Of a stretch of DNA of 64,000 bases, positions 23,838 to 38,135 are shown piece after piece; within the stretch, counting starts at the first letter, position 1, and each line of letters starts with the position of its first letter. Under the pieces are notes generated by a model that ran no database searches, was not told the DNA's origin, and saw only the letters and a list, made by a program, of their open reading frames with translations. The stretch lies in sequence record OR539218.1. The stretch is one strand, 5' to 3'. The position numbers and the translations under genes were made by a program. The stretch comes from Escherichia phage vB-Eco-KMB26.

Positions 23838-24395
23838 TCACTTTGAAATCATAGTTGGAATGACAGAATCGAGATAAGTCTTTAGCGCAATAGCTTCGTC
23901 TTTGGTAAATGTGACAATATACGATCGAAAATCATCAATTTGACGAATAGTTAAGACATCACCATCTTCATAGCATTTTGATACGTTTAAAACAGTTTCA
24001 TCATTCTGATTGCAAGCGTTAGTAATAATAGCATTGCAATTTTTGAGCCATTTTAAACTATGTTTTCTTTCATTAGAATAATAAAAATATTTAATCTTAT
24101 CTATAAAACTATCCCAATGGATAACTGATAAACACATTGACTCACTTTTAATATTAAATCCTGGGCATGAAGAATAAAAATGAATTTTGTGCTCATCATT
24201 GATGCTTACTATTTTATCAGTATAAGGATATTCAATTTGGGTTAAATGAATGATTTCACTAGGCGTAAAATATAGCATATCGTCTTCTTGTGTCAAACGA
24301 TACATATTATTTACTTTTTCTATAGCTAATTCACCAAAAAGCGGACTAACTTCTAATACTAATCGTTTCATATTGATTCTCTTCGACTCACCCAC
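23838..24395 (-). CDS. Hypothetical protein, paralog of 23310-23831; ORF-track start is GTG, alternative ATG at 24371
   Basis: 185-aa ORF. Confidence 0.5.
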   Translation of the reverse strand: MGESKRINMKRLVLEVSPLFGELAIEKVNNMYRLTQEDDMLYFTPSEIIHLTQIEYPYTDKIVSINDEHKIHFYSSCPGFNIKSESMCLSVIHWDSFIDKIKYFYYSNERKHSLKWLKNCNAIITNACNQNDETVLNVSKCYEDGDVLTIRQIDDFRSYIVTFTKDEAIALKTYLDSVIPTMISK

Positions 24396-24397
24396 AA

Positions 24398-24502
24398 TTA
24401 CATACTCCTTTGAATAATATCAATAATGTTGTTCACCAGATTATAAGTAAACATTGGATAATTATATTGAATCATCACATACACAACAAACAAAACTTTC
24501 AT
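24398..24502 (-). CDS. Micro-ORF (34 aa, hydrophobic) with strong AAGGAG RBS, ending 2 nt before the GTG start of the downstream gene
   Basis: Hand translation MKVLFVVYVMIQYNYPMFTYNLVNNIIDIIQRSM. Confidence 0.25.
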   Translation of the reverse strand: MKVLFVVYVMIQYNYPMFTYNLVNNIIDIIQRSM

Positions 24503-24518
24503 TCTCTTCTCCTTGGCA

Positions 24519-24552
24519 GTTGACAAGATTACTATATCATAATCTTGTCAAC
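24519..24552. repeat. Perfect 13-bp inverted repeat GTTGACAAGATTA-(8 nt)-TAATCTTGTCAAC
   Basis: Read directly; each arm contains TTGACA. Confidence 0.85.
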
Positions 24553-24562
24553 TTGTAAACCA

Positions 24563-24736
24563 TTAAATGACGTTTTCAATAAAATTCTGAAGCTTTGTGT
24601 GAGCATCAACCATGATTTTCATTTCTTCTTTGGCGAAAGCTGTACCTCTTTCCCGAGAAGAACACTCATAGTCAGAAACTGCATTAGCATATTCTTCAAT
24701 TAGTTTCATTAAAAACATCTGCTTTTCAGTTTTCAT
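24563..24736 (-). CDS. Small ORF (57 aa)
   Basis: Hand translation MKTEKQMFLMKLIEEYANAV...; below ORF-track cutoff. Confidence 0.35.
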   Translation of the reverse strand: MKTEKQMFLMKLIEEYANAVSDYECSSRERGTAFAKEEMKIMVDAHTKLQNFIENVI

Positions 24737-24920
24737 TATTCCACCTAATCATTTCAAGATATTGAACTAACTTAGCTTTGGATTTATCCAAATCCTTTTT
24801 AGCTGCTTCTATACCGTCGTATGAATATCCTTCACAATGCTCAACTGCTAATTGGTATGAATCTATTTCAATATCACGTGCTAATTTAATGATTTTTTCA
24901 AACTGTTCACGTGTTAGCAT
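24726..24920 (-). CDS. Hypothetical small protein
   Basis: 64-aa ORF. Confidence 0.5.
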   Translation of the reverse strand: MLTREQFEKIIKLARDIEIDSYQLAVEHCEGYSYDGIEAAKKDLDKSKAKLVQYLEMIRWNNEN

Positions 24921-24922
24921 AA

Positions 24923-25126
24923 TTAAACTCTCGTATTATGATCGATAATTTCATCAAGAAACATATCTAACGCTTCTAAAGCATTATCAACTTTAGCTTC
25001 AAATTTTTCAATACCTTTATTTGCAATGCCTGCCGAAAACCAAGCAAAGTCACTAAGTTCCTCATCTGCTTTGCGAATTAAAGCTACCAATTCTTTAATT
25101 TTATCTGCTTGTTCAATTCTAGTCAT
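24923..25126 (-). CDS. Hypothetical small protein; start MTRIEQAD overlaps the upstream stop (TAATG); ORF track extends to 25162
   Basis: Start context inspected by hand. Confidence 0.45.
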   Translation of the reverse strand: MTRIEQADKIKELVALIRKADEELSDFAWFSAGIANKGIEKFEAKVDNALEALDMFLDEIIDHNTRV

Positions 25127-25314
25127 TATTCCACCACATATGAAAGAGAGAATATTGCACACGCCATATGAGTTGCAGCTTCATCACACATATCATAACG
25201 TTTCTTAAGAAGTTCTACAAGTTCTTCACTAGTAACTTCATCCATGTCGACGAAAAAATCACCATTAATGATGACGTAGATATTTCCTTCTTGATTAAGT
25301 GCTTCAATTTTCAT
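25126..25314 (-). CDS. Hypothetical small acidic protein; start MKIEALN after GAGGAG RBS (ORF track extends to 25359)
   Basis: RBS and early promoter upstream. Confidence 0.5.
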
Positions 25315-25333
25315 GATGTTCTCCTCTTTATCC

Positions 25334-25372
25334 GATAGTTGTATAGTACCACAGCTCAAACGGAAAGTAAAC
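25334..25372 (-). promoter_or_regulatory. Early promoter (-35 GTTTAC, -10 TACTAT)
   Basis: Motif gatagttgtatagtacc...gtaaac. Confidence 0.55.
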
Positions 25373-25388
25373 CGGTAAAATGAAAAAA

Positions 25389-25404
25389 GTCTCCCGAAGG
25401 AGAC
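25389..25404 (-). terminator. C(UUCG)G-type hairpin GTCTCCttcgGGAGAC
   Basis: 6-bp stem with UUCG loop downstream of the rI.-1-position gene. Confidence 0.5.
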
Positions 25405-25409
25405 TAATG

Positions 25410-25796
25410 TTATTCGAGGGAAAGAAGATACTTACTTTGGTAAAACATTCCAGTAATATCATCTATCGTGCTTTGAATGGCTGGAGGCATTTCTTTATAA
25501 ATGCTGTTAGATTGGTCTAGTATGCGATCAATCATTTTAATTGTGTCGGTAGGAAGTTTACTGGCATCTGGAATTGAAGGCGTGTATTTTCTACCAGAAT
25601 ACCCCAAATATTGCTCACCAAATTTATCAATCAAATCTGGCAACTCGGAGAAAATAAAATCGTATGCTTTGTGTCTAGCATAACTTTTAGTTTCAAAATG
25701 TGCAGAATGAAAATAAGCTTGTGCAGCCATTAATAAACCTAAGTATTCATCTGCCTTTGAAGGTTTTCCACTTTGTGAAAAGTCGCTGAATTTCAT
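25410..25796 (-). CDS. Hypothetical protein at the rI.-1 position
   Basis: 128-aa ORF immediately downstream of rI. Confidence 0.55.
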
Positions 25797-26086
25797 TCAG
25801 TCTCCAATTTAATGTTCATAATTCTAGCGTATGATTGTGCCATCTCCGCGCCTCGCTCTATACATTCAAAATCGGAAGAGCACGGGTCATTTTTATAAGT
25901 CGTTCGCATAAAACTATAGAACTGTTCAGATGATTCTACGCTTTTATTTTCAAAAAGCATATAAACGTGTCTAATACCAGATTCCATAAATTTATCAAAA
26001 TGAGGATCGACATTCGCTTCAATTGGTGGAGATAAAGCAAATGCTAATCCTAGCATGGCAAATAGTGCCGTTGCTTTTAAGGCCAT
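25793..26086 (-). CDS. rI: Lysis-inhibition regulator rI (periplasmic, signal-anchored)
   Basis: 97 aa; MALKATALFAMLGL... matches T4 RI. Confidence 0.88.
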   Translation of the reverse strand: MALKATALFAMLGLAFALSPPIEANVDPHFDKFMESGIRHVYMLFENKSVESSEQFYSFMRTTYKNDPCSSDFECIERGAEMAQSYARIMNIKLETE

Positions 26087-26098
26087 AAAGGCCTCCTA

Positions 26099-26311
26099 TC
26101 ATTTTTGTCCTGTATTTACTTTATGCCGATGCACGGCCTTAACTTTATCAAGGTATTTTTCAAAATTTCGCAATCTAGTATAGTCTGCCGGAGATTGGTT
26201 GAGTGATACTTCTCGACGCAAAGCTGAAATGATATTTCCAACTTCCCTACGAATTTCATCTAATTGAAGCACAGTAAGATTGCGAAGTTGCTTTTCAGTT
26301 AATTGTAGCAT
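26099..26311 (-). CDS. Hypothetical protein at the rI.1 position
   Basis: 70-aa ORF. Confidence 0.55.
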
Positions 26312-26336
26312 ATATACCCCTTTAGTTAGATAAACC

Positions 26337-26344
26337 TATTTATA
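26337..26344 (-). promoter_or_regulatory. Late promoter -10 element TATAAATA
   Basis: Exact TATAAATA on minus strand about 25 nt upstream of the 26311 start. Confidence 0.45.
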
Positions 26345-26353
26345 ACTTTTGCA

Positions 26354-26935
26354 CTAACCGAGCTTTTTAGTTAATTCATTCCAATGCTTTCTACACAAAG
26401 AAACATAAATTTCATCACCAATACAGATTTGATTACCTTCTTTAACTGGTGTTCCATCTTCCATTAATCGAGCTGTCATAATAGCTTTTTTACCACAATG
26501 ACAAACTGCCTTTAGTTCAATAAGTTTATCTGCAATCGCCAAAAGTTCTTTAGAACCTTCAAATAATTTTCCAGCGAAATCAGTCCTTAGCCCATAAGCC
26601 ATAACAGGAACATTATATGTATCAACAATTCGACTTAATTGATGCACCTGTTCAGTTTTTAAAAACTGAGCTTCATCTACAAATACACAATGAATATCTT
26701 TTTGTGCTTCAGCCCATTTATAGAACTCAAAAATATCCATATCATCCGTAATAATATTCGCTTCCTGCTTAATTCCAATGCGAGAAACGACTTCACAGAC
26801 AGAATCGCGAGTATCAATAGCAGGCTTAAGAACTAATACACCCATTCCGCGTTCTTTATAATTATGTGCAGCAGTCAAAAGAGAAGCAGATTTTCCAGCA
26901 TTCATTGCTGCGTAAGTAAAAATTAAACTCGCCAT
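26354..26935 (-). CDS. tk: Thymidine kinase
   Basis: 193 aa; P-loop AAMNAGKS; C-terminal Zn-binding Cys pairs; matches T4 Tk. Confidence 0.92.
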   Translation of the reverse strand: MASLIFTYAAMNAGKSASLLTAAHNYKERGMGVLVLKPAIDTRDSVCEVVSRIGIKQEANIITDDMDIFEFYKWAEAQKDIHCVFVDEAQFLKTEQVHQLSRIVDTYNVPVMAYGLRTDFAGKLFEGSKELLAIADKLIELKAVCHCGKKAIMTARLMEDGTPVKEGNQICIGDEIYVSLCRKHWNELTKKLG

Positions 26936-26944
26936 ATCACCTTC

Positions 26945-27130
26945 TTAAAGCATATTCACATAAGCTATTAATTCGTTTTCTTTCTTATCAAACCGATCAG
27001 CAAATTCTTCTTGCTGTTCGGGAGATAGCGGGCCGTATTCATCATAAAAGGTGTTTGCTTCTGTATGCTCATCTAGAAGTTCATGGATAAGCTCAAACAA
27101 TTTATCTTTTTGTTCTTTACTCAGACTCAT
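26945..27130 (-). CDS. Hypothetical small acidic protein (tk.1 position)
   Basis: 61-aa ORF. Confidence 0.5.
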   Translation of the reverse strand: MSLSKEQKDKLFELIHELLDEHTEANTFYDEYGPLSPEQQEEFADRFDKKENELIAYVNML

Positions 27131-27300
27131 ATATTAATTTCCAGGAGTTTTAAAATAATTCGCTTTTGCTTAAATATTTCCATAGTTAAATGACCAGTAT
27201 CTTTTTGACCGATTCCAATGGCAAAACCTTTATTAACAGCGAGTTCAATTAAATTATCAAGCTCACGTAACACTTCATACTGTAACTCAAAACTATTCAT
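27127..27300 (-). CDS. Small ORF (57 aa) coupled by ATGA overlap to the downstream gene
   Basis: Hand translation MNSFELQYEVLREL...; below ORF-track cutoff. Confidence 0.4.
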   Translation of the reverse strand: MNSFELQYEVLRELDNLIELAVNKGFAIGIGQKDTGHLTMEIFKQKRIILKLLEINI

Positions 27301-27509
27301 TTCGGTTTACCTTCTTTAACGAAATCTGGATAAGGATAAAATCCCGAATAAAATCCTTCACCTTTATGATTGATGCATCCTTTATTAGAACAATAGCACC
27401 AATAATCGAAATCACAAGCCATTTCATCGTTGCATAAAGCAAAAACAACTGGCCATTTACACTTTTCACAATGGGCATTTTTAAGAATACTAGTTTGGCT
27501 CATAACCAT
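27297..27509 (-). CDS. Cys-rich small protein (probable Zn-binding)
   Basis: 70 aa with 8 Cys/His in CxxC-like spacing. Confidence 0.5.
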   Translation of the reverse strand: MVMSQTSILKNAHCEKCKWPVVFALCNDEMACDFDYWCYCSNKGCINHKGEGFYSGFYPYPDFVKEGKPK

Positions 27510-27727
27510 GTAACCTTTAAGCAGTATTCTTCTACATGCTGTTTACGACCTTTCTTATCAATAAAGGTATATTCAACGAATGTTCCAATGTAGTCTTTAT
27601 CTACATCATGCGGACTATTAATTGGACATTTAGTACGGCAAATGCGTTCCCATTGACGAATAATTACTGCCTTATTCTTTGGGTCATATGGATGTGGATA
27701 ATGTATATTCATAATAACGGTTCCCAA
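27500..27727 (-). CDS. Hypothetical small protein
   Basis: 75-aa ORF. Confidence 0.5.
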   Translation of the reverse strand: MGTVIMNIHYPHPYDPKNKAVIIRQWERICRTKCPINSPHDVDKDYIGTFVEYTFIDKKGRKQHVEEYCLKVTWL

Positions 27728-28176
27728 TCAACAATCACAATTTCTAATTTAGAGGAATATGTATCTAAAATCCCCTCAATAATATCCCAGTTCCCTTTAC
27801 CTATGCCTGCACCAATCCTAGGCATATAGATTGTAGGTTTAATCAGTTTATTTTCACCAAACTCATTTAATTCTAACATACAATTCATTAAAGCGGAATA
27901 CTCAAAATTTGGCCCTGGTTGAAATTGAGTATAAAGGTTGAAGCAATACGCTTTATGAGTCCTAAAGTATTTTTCATAGACTGAGTAAGAACCGAGTTTA
28001 GTTACATCACCCCATTCAGTCTGTAATTTATCAGCTTCCAAAATTTTAGGGAAAGCTTTGGTTAATTGACCCGCTACGCCTGAACCCATAGTATGAAAAC
28101 AATTGCATCCATGCGCAATATTTTTACCTTCAGCGAAAAGGGCGACAATATCGCCCTTGATATATTTTACAATCAT
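27709..28176 (-). CDS. Macro-domain-like protein (predicted ADP-ribose binding/hydrolase fold)
   Basis: 155 aa; GDIVAL...HGCNC...MGSGVAGQL and IGAGIGKG resemble macro-domain GDIT...NAAN...GGGVxGAI and glycine-rich loop. Confidence 0.45.
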   Translation of the reverse strand: MIVKYIKGDIVALFAEGKNIAHGCNCFHTMGSGVAGQLTKAFPKILEADKLQTEWGDVTKLGSYSVYEKYFRTHKAYCFNLYTQFQPGPNFEYSALMNCMLELNEFGENKLIKPTIYMPRIGAGIGKGNWDIIEGILDTYSSKLEIVIVDWEPLL

Positions 28177-28514
28177 CTAGTACTCAATCCTCGATTATAA
28201 GAATCTACCAAACGGTCAACCATTGAATGACAAGCGGCTTTATCTTTCTCCTCCGCAACTGAACATTCTAAGGTATTCCACTTTTTAGCATATCGTTTTA
28301 ATAATGTATCGTTTTTGTATCTGCTTGATTTATCTCTTTCTCCGTCTTTATATGCATATATTAATTTCTGCGCAAATTCAGCTTGGCATGCTTTATTTTT
28401 CCCACAATAATCTGCCGCAGTGCGATTTACATATTCTCTAATTTCAGTATATGATGTATCTGCTAACGCAGAAAATGAAATTAATCCTATACATAAAACC
28501 AAAATTTTAGTCAT
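28173..28514 (-). CDS. Secreted/periplasmic small protein
   Basis: 113 aa; N-terminal MTKILVLCIGLISFSALA followed by DTSY; 4 Cys. Confidence 0.5.
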   Translation of the reverse strand: MTKILVLCIGLISFSALADTSYTEIREYVNRTAADYCGKNKACQAEFAQKLIYAYKDGERDKSSRYKNDTLLKRYAKKWNTLECSVAEEKDKAACHSMVDRLVDSYNRGLSTR

Positions 28515-29052
28515 TTACTATTTCCAAAAGTTTATTATTTTTAAGGTAATTAGCCTTTTCTAGGACTTCAGAAGCATATTTAGAACCTGCTTTAACATTC
28601 CATCCCGAATTATAAGATGATATTGCTTTTCTTATATCGCCCTTATGTATATTTAACCAATAAGAAAGTTCAATGTACGCCCAGGAAGCTGAATTGGATC
28701 GTTTATTCAACATTCTTTTTATTTCAGCATCGGTCATATTATAACCAAGTTCCTTAACTCTTGCTCGCATAGTAGGCAAATAATTTTGGAACATTCCATA
28801 AGCGTGATGCTTTGGTTTAGATTTTAAATTAACTCCGCCAGAGCTTTCTTGCCATAAAATAGCAGCCATTATATGACCTAATCCGCTCTTGTGGATATTT
28901 TTGTGTGTTTTATATTTTCCATCCTTAGAAAACTGTTCCCCGAATTGATACGCGTAACGCATGTTATCGAGTTGGACATTACTGAAAGTATGCTCGGAGC
29001 TATGTGCCATCATAGAAATGGCCAATAGACCAGCGAGTAGTGCTTTTCTCAT
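28507..29052 (-). CDS. Secreted lytic-transglycosylase-like (SLT-domain) protein
   Basis: 181 aa; signal peptide; catalytic-type WQESSGG, GMFQ and SYNSG motifs. Confidence 0.55.
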   Translation of the reverse strand: MRKALLAGLLAISMMAHSSEHTFSNVQLDNMRYAYQFGEQFSKDGKYKTHKNIHKSGLGHIMAAILWQESSGGVNLKSKPKHHAYGMFQNYLPTMRARVKELGYNMTDAEIKRMLNKRSNSASWAYIELSYWLNIHKGDIRKAISSYNSGWNVKAGSKYASEVLEKANYLKNNKLLEIVND

Positions 29053-29059
29053 GTTTACC

Positions 29060-29521
29060 TCATTGAGTTTTAATTACTGCTTTAGAAGCCTTTCCTGGTA
29101 AACGACGACTGTTGATAATTGCCATCCTACATTGAAGTGACGGGTCTTTGAACTTCTCATTAGGTTTACAAACTGTAAATCCAAGCCAAAGATTTCCATC
29201 TGTAATTTCTAAACGTCCAGGACGATATTCAACTCCATCAATAAAATCCTCATCAATGTCAGGACGCGGAGGCATACTCAGGAATTCATTAACTTCTAAA
29301 ACATGGTCTTTTATTTTATGGAATAATTCAAAAACATATGTCTCATCAATCTCCCGTTGAATTGCACGATCAAGAAGATGTTGAGAATATTTTAGATGAA
29401 ACGATGAGACCCCTGCTGCTTTTGATGCCTCACGAATCTCATTGTTAATTTGACGAAACTCCGACTCAAAGTGACGACGAAGCTTATTTCGACGGATAAA
29501 AACTTCTGTATTGATAGTCAT
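29060..29521 (-). CDS. regB: Sequence-specific mRNA endoribonuclease RegB
   Basis: 153 aa; MTINTEVFIRRNKLRRHF... matches T4 RegB. Confidence 0.92.
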   Translation of the reverse strand: MTINTEVFIRRNKLRRHFESEFRQINNEIREASKAAGVSSFHLKYSQHLLDRAIQREIDETYVFELFHKIKDHVLEVNEFLSMPPRPDIDEDFIDGVEYRPGRLEITDGNLWLGFTVCKPNEKFKDPSLQCRMAIINSRRLPGKASKAVIKTQ

Positions 29522-29539
29522 GTTGTTCTCCTCTTAACT

Positions 29540-29578
29540 GATAGAAAAATTATACCACAGTCAAGAGGAAAAGTAAAC
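29540..29578 (-). promoter_or_regulatory. Early promoter upstream of regB (-35 GTTTAC, -10 TATAAT)
   Basis: Minus strand aactGTTTACttttcctcttgactgtggTATAAT. Confidence 0.6.
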
Positions 29579-29580
29579 AG

Positions 29581-29859
29581 TTATTCTTTAAATCTAATCA
29601 ATTTATTCATAGACTTTGAAACTTCTGCACGAACCTCATGTAGATTTTTGAGCTGTTCAAGACGCTGCGTATAGTAAGCAATTTCATCTTCTTCGAGACA
29701 GTCCTGTGAATCTTCTTTAAGATACCGTGCATAGTCCTGGAAAGCGTTACGGACTACTTCCTGGAAGTCATCAAGACTTTGAATTTTCTTAGGAGCAGCA
29801 GACACACGACGAGGGGCAGTATAATACTCATAACCAAACCCTGCGCTTAATTGAGCCAT
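29581..29859 (-). CDS. Hypothetical protein (vs.3 position); start MAQLSAGF by TAATG overlap; ORF track extends to 29901
   Basis: Start context inspected by hand. Confidence 0.5.
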
Positions 29860-30125
29860 TAGTATTTTTCCTCTGGTTGGAACACAGCACGACAAGCCCA
29901 CATACTGGCTTCTTTGAGTTTCGTTTTAGCAATAGCTAACTGATCGAGGCTTTCAGCATAATTCTTCGCGAGTTCAAAGTCTTCGCAATTATCTAGTGCT
30001 TCCCAGAATTCATCATATAAAGCATCAAAGATAAGTCCTAAACGAACTTCAGCGTCTTTAATAGCATTTACTTTACCGATTTTTTCGTCGGTATGTGGCT
30101 TATAACCTTTAATATCTTCAATCAT
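29859..30125 (-). CDS. Hypothetical small acidic protein at the vs.4 position (T4 vs.4 is the anti-CBASS protein Acb2; identity here not verified); ORF track extends to 30161
   Basis: Start MIEDIKGYK after GAGGA RBS. Confidence 0.45.
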
Positions 30126-30339
30126 ATTTGACTTCCTCACCAGTACATAAATCGTATTCAACTAAACGAATAGGTTCATGAATGCCATATCCCTGAACAG
30201 AAATTTCTGTCGTAGGATAAATTCCACTAATATCACCCATATTCCACGCTTCATTAAATTGCTGTTCGCCTGAATTACTAAACCACTCGGCGAAAGCATT
30301 TAGCACATCTTCAGAACCTTCAATAATTATCTTTGCCAT
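30118..30339 (-). CDS. Hypothetical small acidic protein
   Basis: 73-aa ORF. Confidence 0.5.
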   Translation of the reverse strand: MAKIIIEGSEDVLNAFAEWFSNSGEQQFNEAWNMGDISGIYPTTEISVQGYGIHEPIRLVEYDLCTGEEVKYD

Positions 30340-30701
30340 TACAAACTCTCGGTGAAGGTACGAGCGATAACGTCGCGCTGCTGTTCCGGAGTCAGAGAGT
30401 TAAAGCGAACTGCATAACCGGATACACGGATGGTCAGCTGCGGATATTTTTCCGGATGCTTAACTGCATCTTCCAGAGTTTCACGACGCAGAACGTTTAC
30501 GTTCAGGTGTTGACCACCTTCAATTTTAACTGTAGGCTGTTGCTCAATTTCAATTTCACGGGCATGCAAACCATAGAAAATTTCTGGGTCTACAAAAGAG
30601 TCCTCTTTAAAGGTTTTAGAGACAATAATTCGTGCTTGAATACCATCTTCAAAATAAATAGTACCTTTATGTGTGCCTTCAAGAATTTGATATGCTTTCA
30701 T
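30339..30701 (-). CDS. Autonomous glycyl radical cofactor (GrcA/YfiD-like; T4 Y06I-type)
   Basis: 120 aa; C-terminal glycyl radical motif RVSGYAVRF. Confidence 0.8.
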
Positions 30702-30707
30702 ATAACC

Positions 30708-31088
30708 TCAATTAGAAAATAAATTTATCCAAGATTGTTCTTTAATTAAAAATGGCTCAGAATCATATGCCATTAAACTCTGTGTGATTAGTCCTTTAAA
30801 AGGCCCATCAATAAATTCCATGGTAAAATATGGAATTTTATTCATTAGCCGTGCATTAGGAGCCGTGCACAAAACTCTGCATCCTTTGAATACGCCTTTT
30901 TGTAATTTGTATTGCTTGGGACAAAATTCGCTCAAAATGTTATTTTTTGCCAAAATTTCAAAATGATTCACCAATTTATTTTTAATAGTTTTTGGCGAAA
31001 AATAAAGATATTCGAAAAGCTGAGTGTCTGTCATCATTGCATTCCGATTACGAAAAACTGTGGACGAGTAATACCACCAATGCAACAT
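30708..31088 (-). CDS. Hypothetical protein
   Basis: 126-aa ORF. Confidence 0.5.
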   Translation of the reverse strand: MLHWWYYSSTVFRNRNAMMTDTQLFEYLYFSPKTIKNKLVNHFEILAKNNILSEFCPKQYKLQKGVFKGCRVLCTAPNARLMNKIPYFTMEFIDGPFKGLITQSLMAYDSEPFLIKEQSWINLFSN

Positions 31089-31573
31089 TTAATATTACAG
31101 CAGCAGTGTACAGTGTCAATATGGACACTATAAATCTTATCCATATCAGGAGATTTGACAGGCTCATCAATTATATACAAAATTCGCGAAAGTGATAAAC
31201 CTCTGAACTTGCTTCCTTTATTACCAATAAAACTGCGCACAGAATCAGTAAATAAACGAAAACGTATATCATCATTAGAATAACGCGAAAATTCCTTTTT
31301 AATATTATCTGCGGAAATTTTAGCGTAAGCTGAAGTATTAGAAAGAACAATAACTGTTCCACCGTCATACAACCAATTAGCGGCAAAATTAGTTACTGCA
31401 GTTGATTTACCAGATTGACGCCCACCATCTAGTCGAAGTGTACAATACTGTTTAAGTAAGTCTTCAAATGGCGGGATATATTCGTTTTTACAAATTTCTT
31501 CTACTCTAGCATCAGAATGGTGTGTAAAAGCATTCATCAGGGATAGATAAGGACCAGTTAAAAATGTTCTCAT
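31034..31573 (-). CDS. P-loop NTPase-like protein
   Basis: 179 aa; Walker A GGRQSGKST; Walker B-like ILYIIDE. Confidence 0.55.
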   Translation of the reverse strand: MRTFLTGPYLSLMNAFTHHSDARVEEICKNEYIPPFEDLLKQYCTLRLDGGRQSGKSTAVTNFAANWLYDGGTVIVLSNTSAYAKISADNIKKEFSRYSNDDIRFRLFTDSVRSFIGNKGSKFRGLSLSRILYIIDEPVKSPDMDKIYSVHIDTVHCCCNIKCCIGGITRPQFFVIGMQ

Positions 31574-31719
31574 TTTTGTTCTCTCTAGGTTTGGGCCATT
31601 CCATGGCGCATGAATTGTCCATTTCTGTATTTACCCATTACCGCACTTGGGCTCGACCTTATTACAGGTTGGCGGGAATCCCTCACAGAATCATGAGGTC
31701 CAGGTTATTCCCATGTTAT

Positions 31720-32136
31720 TTAAATGTAAATATTTTTGCCGTAATACTTATACCAGTGTGGCTTCATTAAAATTTTTTCATCGAGTCGTTGTTGACTCAA
31801 CTTAATAGCTGATTTGCATGGATTATAATCATTTTTCCATTCTACTGGAATATCGCTGATGTCAGGAACTTCAGTATCTTTTATACTGAACCCGCGTTTT
31901 AAGCATTCCGTTATAATGTCCGATTGACGCTTTCGCAAAAATTCTAACTTATCGTAAAAGAAAGTAACATGACCAGAACCTAAAATAAATTTAGAAGATA
32001 TTTTAAAATCTTTAACGCGCTTACCGTTTGCCACATGCTTACGAACTATACCAAAAACACGCGGCAATTCACGGTATTCTGCGATTAAATGTTGATCAGC
32101 AAGTTCAGATACTAAAGTCAAATTAATACGAGTCAT
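31720..32136 (-). CDS. denV: Endonuclease V (pyrimidine-dimer DNA glycosylase)
   Basis: 138 aa; [17 protein letters not shown]... matches T4 DenV. Confidence 0.92.
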
Positions 32137-37307: not shown

Positions 37308-37383
37308 TGGTCGAGGCAGTAGGGATCGAACCTACGACCCAGGACTTAGAAGGTCCTTGCTCTTCCTTCTGAGCTATGCCTCG
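37308..37383 (-). tRNA. tRNA-Arg (anticodon UCU), CCA encoded
   Basis: Hand-folded cloverleaf: 7-bp acceptor, anticodon loop cuUCUaa, T-loop TTCGATC. Confidence 0.85.
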
Positions 37384-37387
37384 TATT

Positions 37388-37462
37388 TGGCGGACGTGAT
37401 AGGATTCGAACCTATAACCAATCGCTTAACAGGCGATCGCTCTGCCATTGAGCTACACATCC
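37388..37462 (-). tRNA. tRNA-Asn (anticodon GUU), CCA encoded
   Basis: Hand-folded cloverleaf; anticodon loop cuGUUaa. Confidence 0.8.
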
Positions 37463-37466
37463 AAAT

Positions 37467-37553
37467 TGGTGGGGAGTGGTGGAGTCGAACCACCCGAGTC
37501 GCAATGACAATGAATTTACAGTCCACACCGCTACCTCTACGGGATAACTCCCC
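37467..37553 (-). tRNA. tRNA-Tyr (anticodon GUA), long variable arm, CCA encoded
   Basis: Anticodon loop cuGUAaa; 87 nt; perfect acceptor stem. Confidence 0.7.
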
Positions 37554-37562
37554 AAATTAATT

Positions 37563-37637
37563 TGGTGGCCCTGGGTGGAATTGAACCACCATCTGGCGAT
37601 TATGAGTCGCTTGCTTGAACCTTCCAGCTACAGGGCC
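37563..37637 (-). tRNA. tRNA with CAU anticodon (most likely the AUA-reading tRNA-Ile by position; Met not excluded)
   Basis: Perfect 7-bp acceptor; anticodon loop cuCAUaa; position matches T4 tRNA-Ile. Confidence 0.7.
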
Positions 37638-37638
37638 T

Positions 37639-37714
37639 TGGTGCTGATTGACGGAATCGAACCGCCGACCTTCTCATTACAAGTGAGTTGCTCTACCTAC
37701 TGAGCTAAATCAGC
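37639..37714 (-). tRNA. tRNA-Thr (anticodon UGU)
   Basis: Hand-folded; anticodon loop cuUGUaa. Confidence 0.85.
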
Positions 37715-37719
37715 AAAAC

Positions 37720-37809
37720 TGGCGGAGGCGATAGGATTTGAACCTATGAGTCGCCGGAGCGACTGCCGGTTTTCAAGACCGGTGCATTAAACCACTCTGC
37801 CACGCCTCC
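37720..37809 (-). tRNA. tRNA-Ser (anticodon UGA), long variable arm
   Basis: 90 nt; anticodon stem CCGGU/ACCGG; loop cuUGAaa. Confidence 0.85.
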
Positions 37810-37811
37810 AG

Positions 37812-37885
37812 TCTCCGTGGCAGGATTTGAACCTACGACATTCTGCTCCCAAAGCAGACGCTCTACCAAACTGAGCTACACGGAG
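37812..37885 (-). tRNA. tRNA-Pro (anticodon UGG), no encoded CCA; abuts tRNA-Ser
   Basis: Hand-folded; anticodon loop uuUGGga. Confidence 0.85.
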
Positions 37886-37895
37886 TAAATTAAAT

Positions 37896-37969
<74 letters not shown>

Positions 37970-37974
37970 AAATT

Positions 37975-38061
37975 TGGTGCGAGAAGTGGGACTCGAACCC
38001 ACAAGGAAATCATTCCGCAGCATTTTAAGTGCTGTGCCTTTACCAATTTGGCCATTCTCGC
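37975..38061 (-). tRNA. tRNA-Leu (anticodon UAA), long variable arm
   Basis: 87 nt; anticodon stem CAGCA/UGCUG; loop cuUAAaa. Confidence 0.85.
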
Positions 38062-38062
38062 G

Positions 38063-38135
38063 CTGGGAATAAAGGACTCGAACCTTTGCATCCTGGAATC
38101 AAAATCCAGTGCCTTACCAACTTGGCTAATTCCCA
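38063..38135 (-). tRNA. tRNA-Gln (anticodon UUG), no encoded CCA; abuts tRNA-Leu
   Basis: Hand-folded; anticodon stem CUGGA/UCCAG; loop uuUUGau. Confidence 0.85.

Follow-up and report, generated by a model that had tools for sequence, protein, structure and literature searches.

The protein of 155 amino acids encoded on the minus strand at 27709..28176 of the window (the whole 64,000 nucleotide stretch of Escherichia phage vB-Eco-KMB26 analysed here, OR539218.1) contains one macro domain and is, judged by sequence and gene order, the Tequatrovirus orthologue of bacteriophage T4 tk.4 (adfM). We consider it probable that Tk.4 is an early-expressed, orphan antitoxin-like enzyme of DarTG2 counter-defence, which would hydrolyse thymidine ADP-ribose by Gln-type chemistry similar to that of SCO6735. 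The recognition of a macro domain in this gene is correct and was already known, the gene being annotated in T4 and later renamed adfM. The only point added here to the known biology is the Gln-type character of the T4-type AdfM family; the window otherwise adds none.

The tk.4 gene begins with ATG and belongs to a tightly packed, co-directional cluster on the minus strand. Its start overlaps the stop codon of vs in an ATGA read directly from the sequence (28173..28176, minus), and its own stop overlaps the start of tk.3 in another ATGA (27709..27712, minus), which is seen both in the sequence and in the annotation of the identical PYPS2T record. The ATGA arrangement, or a short overlap, between vs and tk.4 is also found in T4, ECO07P1, JK45 and LC53, and this ATGA overlap probably couples the translation of tk.4 to that of vs. 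The neighbours identified with Pfam are thymidine kinase, DUF7438, a phage zinc-binding protein, DUF7202 (tk.3), an SLT transglycosylase (vs.1) and the RegB endoribonuclease. The upstream neighbour vs has no Pfam match, its name comes from the annotation of matching records. A scan for promoters found 16 sites where 19.5 were expected from shuffled sequences. The sequence TTTACT-17-TATAAT upstream of regB (29577..29549) is a consensus match alone and was not taken as evidence of a promoter.

The window protein is identical to T4 Tk.4 (NP_049723) at 155 of 155 residues, and the six nucleotide differences between the two genes are all synonymous. The gene is also placed as in T4, between vs and tk.3 on the same strand and with the same start and stop overlaps. 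The original prediction left in doubt whether T4 has an annotated equivalent; the equivalent is T4 tk.4 itself, which RefSeq describes with the remark 'contains A1pp phosphatase motif'. A match of tk.4 orthologues to the SMART A1pp (macro) domain was published in 2006 (PMC1524935), and the gene is already named 'macro domain protein' in many GenBank records. The window phage is distinct from T4, a 24-kb stretch being 99.5% identical to the Yersinia phages PYps15T and PYps14T, and the 2-kb region around tk.4 is 100% identical in several Tequatrovirus genomes. Homologues of Tk.4 are found by tblastn in 2750 phage records, which include Straboviridae, Vequintavirus, Felixounavirus and others, and Tequatrovirus and Winklervirus share the gene order regB-vs.1-vs-tk.4-tk. 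P0072 and P0118, two homologues with the label of a bacterial MAG, were inspected for a DarT-like toxin gene beside them; both lie in T4-like phage contigs with Rnl1, a Dda-like helicase, Pnkp and dCMP deaminase, and so these two sequences gave no context of a bacterial ancestor.

Several product names in the PYPS2T record (MH809535), in the equivalent of window positions 24000-32000, look like mis-transfers. There tk.3 is labelled 'ABC transporter ATP-binding protein' and vs 'valyl-tRNA synthetase', while vs.1, which has an SLT domain, and the three genes GP231-GP233, past vs.6 at the outer end of this region, are labelled 'endoribonuclease'. A 2026 preprint on T2 names tk.4 'putative thymidine kinase'. 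Caution is needed in annotation, as the labels 'phosphatase', 'thymidine kinase' and 'ADP-ribose binding module' are still in use for this gene.

The macro family (PF01661) matches Tk.4 at 27.7 bits, above its gathering cut-off of 22, over residues 22-132 of the protein and positions 2-113 of the 118 in the profile. Tk.4 also matches PHROG 335 at 1e-65. A profile built from an alignment of 46 diverse homologues finds the solved macro domains BT1257 (4e-18), Poa1p (9e-15), SCO6735 (1e-14), TARG1 (3e-14) and DarG (3e-13 and 2e-11), and coronavirus Mac1 at just 2e-3. The AlphaFold2 model made with the same alignment as input (pLDDT 95.4, pTM 0.90) has the three-layer alpha/beta/alpha macro fold, and its top Foldseek matches are TARG1, Poa1p, BT1257 and DarG with TM-scores of 0.71-0.81. 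The nearest neighbours of Tk.4 in both sequence and structure are therefore TARG1, DarG, Poa1p and BT1257 and not MacroD or the viral Mac1, and these profile matches and the predicted structure assign Tk.4 to the TARG1/ALC1-like class of macro domains. The macro domain originally proposed from the spacing of motifs is thus borne out by structure prediction and profiles alike, and a non-macro fold was not seen in either.

The four motifs on which that proposal was based are present in the translation of the window at residues 8-13 (GDIVAL), 22-26 (HGCNC), 30-38 (MGSGVAGQL) and 121-128 (IGAGIGKG). Residue equivalences were taken from profile-HMM alignments, and conservation was counted over 119 Tk.4 homologues. 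A six-sequence MAFFT alignment of Tk.4, BT1257, SCO6735, Poa1p, TARG1 and PhiKZ gp104 was discarded, it misaligned the central strand. The proposed binding residues N25, G31-x-G33 of loop 1 and G122-x-G124 of loop 2 align with those of macro domains. The HGCNC motif (codons at 28099..28113, minus) aligns with HVCND of SCO6735 and HSCNC of Poa1p; N25 (118/119 homologues) is the conserved macro Asn and is equivalent to N27 of SCO6735 and N23 of PhiKZ AdfM, while H22 (114/119) and G23 (118/119) correspond to SCO6735 H24 and V25. The glycine-rich loop 1, M30-A35 (MGSGVA, 28072..28089, minus), aligns with MGAGIA of TARG1 and is predicted to bind the ADP-ribose phosphates; G33 and A35 are invariant among the 119 homologues and G31 is kept in 106. 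Loop 2, P119-G128 (PRIGAGIGKG, 27793..27822, minus), is predicted to bind the diphosphate and aligns with PRIGCGLDRL of TARG1 and PRIGCGLAGG of SCO6735, with G124 at the position of SCO6735 G128. P119, I121, G122 and G124 are each found in all 119 homologues.

Between the two loops is the motif N80-L-Y-T-Q84 (27925..27939, minus), which aligns with LITKK of TARG1 and NMIGQ of BT1257 and SCO6735. Gln84 occupies the position of the catalytic Lys in TARG1 (K84) and DarG (K80) and is equivalent to Gln85 of SCO6735. Every one of the 119 homologues has Gln at this position and none has Lys; Y82 is likewise invariant and N80 is present in 118. At the position of the second catalytic residue of TARG1, D125, Tk.4 has G126 and the homologues have Gly or Ala. 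The catalytic Lys of TARG1 and DarG and the Asp125 of TARG1 are thus absent from Tk.4 and from the 119 homologues. The equivalence of SCO6735 Gln85 with DarG Lys80 and TARG1 Lys84 was established by structural superposition (PMC9411070) and is taken from that work. The motif reading of the original prediction therefore stands for the ADP-ribose-binding elements; the class is that of TARG1 and DarG, not the canonical MacroD type with NAAN and GGG motifs, and the catalytic Lys of TARG1 and DarG is missing.

In SCO6735 the substitutions Q85A and Q85E abolish activity, N27S leaves almost none and G128E reduces it (PMC9411070). Tk.4 has equivalents of all these mutated residues in Q84, N25 and G124. 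SCO6735 removes the thymidine-ADPr made by DarT and shields cells from this toxin (PMC9411070). On these alignments the T4-type AdfM family is throughout of the Gln type, as SCO6735 is, and no simple copy of the DarG antitoxin macrodomain.

SCO6735 of Streptomyces coelicolor (PDB 5E3B) and BT1257 of Bacteroides (2AFC/2FG1) are TARG1-like proteins of the Gln type with about 25-29% identity to Tk.4. Both are encoded on bacterial chromosomes, and Tk.4 by an early gene of a phage. Their motif is NMIGQHG where Tk.4 has NLYTQFxPG, and in comparison with the Tk.4 family they have an insertion of 5-6 residues after the Gln, giving a longer mobile loop that contains Lys89/Lys94. This loop has been linked to DNA processivity by the authors of the SCO6735 study (PMC9411070). 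The loop after the Gln in Tk.4 is QFQPGPNFEY, which has no Lys.

DarG (PDB 5M31/5M3E/5M3I/7OMU) is a protein of about 330-400 amino acids with a C-terminal DarT-binding domain and Lys80, and its gene lies beside darT. In contrast, Tk.4 has 155 amino acids and Gln84 and is the product of an orphan gene. The NCBIfam DarG model NF048014 matches Tk.4 at 30.3 bits against a cut-off of 250, over positions 2-146 of 338, which is the macro part only; the PADLOC DarG model matches over positions 2-145 of 329. No darT toxin gene is found beside tk.4, where the neighbours are vs, vs.1, regB, tk.3, the zinc-binding protein and tk. By its length, domain content and gene setting, Tk.4 is not a DarG.

Human TARG1/OARD1 (PDB 4J5S) is the top Foldseek match to Tk.4 (E=8e-10, TM 0.73-0.80), both are single-domain proteins of the same size. 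TARG1 cleaves thymine- and uracil-linked ADPr (PMC13036486). It has a Lys84/Asp125 dyad where Tk.4 has Gln84 and Gly126. The substrate of yeast Poa1p is a small molecule produced in tRNA splicing. At the position of Tk.4 Gln84 this protein (PDB 6LFQ) has Ser, and it contains a large insertion before loop 2.

The PhiKZ protein gp104 is a stand-alone phage macrodomain that targets DarTG2 and shares the name AdfM with Tk.4 (Cell Rep 2026, PMC13309987). It removes ADP-ribose in vitro, with reduced activity in the N23A mutant, and is imported into the phage nucleus (PMC13309987). An hhalign comparison with Tk.4 gives a probability of 96% at 22% identity, the two are distant relatives; loops 1 and 2 are aligned with confidence, and around the Lys/Gln strand there is a gap and low confidence. 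The P-T-K-D motif suggests that PhiKZ AdfM is of the Lys type, like DarG. PhiKZ gp104 has PTK and T4 Tk.4 has YTQ, hence the two seem to differ at the catalytic position. The name AdfM was given independently by two groups to PhiKZ gp104 and T4 Tk.4, a clash of nomenclature. The Cell Reports paper states that no macrodomain Adf had previously been reported (PMC13309987), and the accessible portions of this paper and of the T4 preprint (bioRxiv 10.1101/2025.11.20.689424) do not cite one another.

ADP-ribosylation of DNA by DarT is a widespread anti-phage defence, DarT2 modifies thymidine in TNTC motifs of single-stranded DNA. T4 lacking both adfA and adfN is still resistant to DarTG2, and a further factor was predicted (PMC11825919). 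Transposon-insertion sequencing of T4 (HIDEN-SEQ) on bacteria with defence systems gave tk.4 as the sole significant hit under DarTG2, and a clean tk.4 knockout was sensitised to this system; the authors of that preprint likened tk.4 to the DarG macrodomain and renamed it adfM (bioRxiv 10.1101/2025.11.20.689424). This result fits the earlier prediction of a further anti-DarTG2 factor (PMC11825919). The idea that a phage macro domain could reverse ADP-ribosylation by defence enzymes, put forward from the sequence alone, agrees with these published genetics of the identical T4 protein, and from this identity the window phage would be expected to require tk.4, as T4 does, to form plaques on hosts that express DarTG2. 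Enzymatic removal of ADP-ribose by Tk.4 is described in the preprint as something that just 'seems likely' (bioRxiv 10.1101/2025.11.20.689424).

We infer that Tk.4 itself carries out the hydrolysis and that its chemistry is of the Gln type. During infection host DarT2 would ADP-ribosylate TNTC thymidines of the single-stranded phage DNA and so block replication. The two glycine loops and Asn25 of Tk.4 would hold the ADP-ribose, and the enzyme would hydrolyse the bond between thymine N3 and the ribose, restoring normal DNA. Because Gln84 replaces the Lys, a mechanism of the SCO6735 type appears most likely rather than the lysine mechanism of DarG and TARG1; Gln84, locked by an Asn, would position the distal ribose, and a water held by the backbone would act as the proton donor.

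The notion that Tk.4 is mainly a stoichiometric inhibitor, which binds DarT2 or shields its ssDNA target and does not hydrolyse, draws on the catalytically inactive mutants SCO6735 Q85A, DarG K80A and TARG1 K84A, all of which inhibit DarT in vitro by interaction, SCO6735 most strongly (PMC9411070). Tk.4, however, has no counterpart of the C-terminal DarT-binding domain of DarG, and N25, Q84, G122 and G124 show no or almost no variation among 119 homologues from phages of many hosts. Such invariance of the active site argues for selection on catalysis and not on the binding of one toxin, and inhibition as the main role appears quite improbable. We give hardly any credence to Tk.4 as an enzyme of small molecules, be it an ADP-ribose-1''-phosphate phosphatase like Poa1p or an O-acetyl-ADP-ribose deacetylase. 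To our knowledge T4 RNA repair (Rnl1/Pnkp) generates no Appr-1''p, which counts against the phosphatase, and the position of the invariant Gln of the Tk.4 family is occupied by Ser in Poa1p. Of the functional residues mutated in Poa1p (His23 and Ser30, in PDB 6LFS and 6LFT), His23 is conserved as H22, and Ser30 corresponds to Thr29, which is kept in just 74 of the 119 homologues. What speaks for a phosphatase is the similarity of fold and the database label, but this label was transferred from the old domain name A1pp (SMART, PMC1524935) and is not based on an assay. The sole phenotype found for tk.4 is, moreover, specific to DarTG2 (bioRxiv 10.1101/2025.11.20.689424).

It also seems very unlikely that antagonism of DarT2 is a side activity and that the main substrate is ADP-ribosylated protein or RNA, such as Glu/Asp-ADPr, uracil-ADPr RNA or the products of Alt, ModA and ModB. 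T4 does encode three ADP-ribosyltransferases, but these modify arginine. We know of no cleavage of the arginine-ADPr linkage by the TARG1-like macro class. The class is nevertheless promiscuous, as TARG1 and SCO6735 cleave ADPr linked to Glu and Asp of proteins (PMC9411070) and TARG1, DarG and SCO6735 cleave uracil-ADPr on RNA (PMC13036486). Against a main role on protein or RNA, tk.4 is dispensable on plain K-12 and important only in the presence of DarTG2 (bioRxiv 10.1101/2025.11.20.689424). Another study describes T-even phages as still sensitive to the mRNA ADP-ribosyltransferase CmdTAC (PMC11618068), and this sensitivity would mean that Tk.4 does not neutralise adenine-ADPr RNA.

Counter-defence by hydrolysis of thymidine ADP-ribose is therefore the reading we prefer. 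A bolder form of it, which we think rather unlikely, makes Tk.4/AdfM a broad-spectrum Gln-type eraser of pyrimidine-ADP-ribose that evolved separately from the Lys-type PhiKZ AdfM and, besides thymidine modified by DarT2 in DNA, also clears U-ADPr RNA or other ADP-ribose adducts made by as yet uncharacterised transferases of host defence. If this were true, the Lys-independent chemistry might be faster, or insensitive to the limits of DarG. T-even phages stack their counters, with AdfA, with AdfN against DarTG1 and with Tk.4/AdfM against DarTG2. The Gln-type hypothesis for T4 AdfM is concrete and cheap to probe with Q84 mutants.

The tk.4 mRNA contains a GC-rich hairpin at codons 7-13 (28138..28158, minus), with the sequence AAGGGCGAU-AUU-GUCGCCCUU followed by a run of U. 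The stem has 8-9 bp and the minimum free energy is -13.4 kcal/mol, compared with -3.9 +/- 1.8 after synonymous-codon resampling, in which 0 of 2000 sequences were as stable. Read on the plus strand, it resembles a terminator. The hairpin is identical in nucleotide sequence in JK45, ECO07P1 and pSe_SNUABM_01, and it is kept in Serratia phage LC53 with one compensatory change from G-C to A-U (p about 0.02); it is missing from more distant tk.4 orthologues that have a different peptide here. Attenuation, antisense termination and mRNA stability are candidate roles for the hairpin. In ECO07P1, the Tk.4 protein of which is just 58% identical overall to that of the window, positions 1462-1540 are the same DNA as window positions 28215-28138, the identity runs from the end of vs to tk.4 codon 13 and is followed by abrupt divergence. 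The break suggests a junction of mosaic recombination, located at the hairpin or immediately behind it.

On the minus-strand mRNA the 3' end of vs (28188-28215) is predicted to form a stem with the Shine-Dalgarno sequence GAGGA and the AUG of tk.4 (28174-28192). The window, T4 and ECO07P1 share one sequence at this place and all have the stem, but JK45 and LC53 lack it, so it is probably not a conserved regulatory element. In cells infected with T2 the tk.4 transcript was found by RIL-seq to pair with the host sRNA ArcZ and other sRNAs, and Tk.4 protein was unchanged in an arcZ mutant during T2 infection (bioRxiv 10.64898/2026.06.19.733364).

The resemblance to T4 stops directly downstream of tk.3, at 26945-27509 (minus), where T4 has tk.2 and tk.1, and it resumes at tk. 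The window has three open reading frames here, a Cys-rich Phage_zn_bind protein of 70 amino acids (PF23895), a protein of 57 amino acids with no family and a DUF7438 protein of 61 amino acids, which are unrelated to tk.1 and tk.2. The comparison of the two genomes shows this segment as a cassette exchanged between phages that are closely related. Ten contiguous tRNA genes are present at 37308-38135 (minus), those for Arg, Asn, Tyr, Met(cat)/Ile, Thr, Ser, Pro, Gly, Leu and Gln. In T4 there are eight tRNA genes, and segB, a gene for a homing endonuclease, separates tRNA-Arg from tRNA-Ile; in the window tRNA-Asn(gtt) and tRNA-Tyr(gta) occupy this segB slot.
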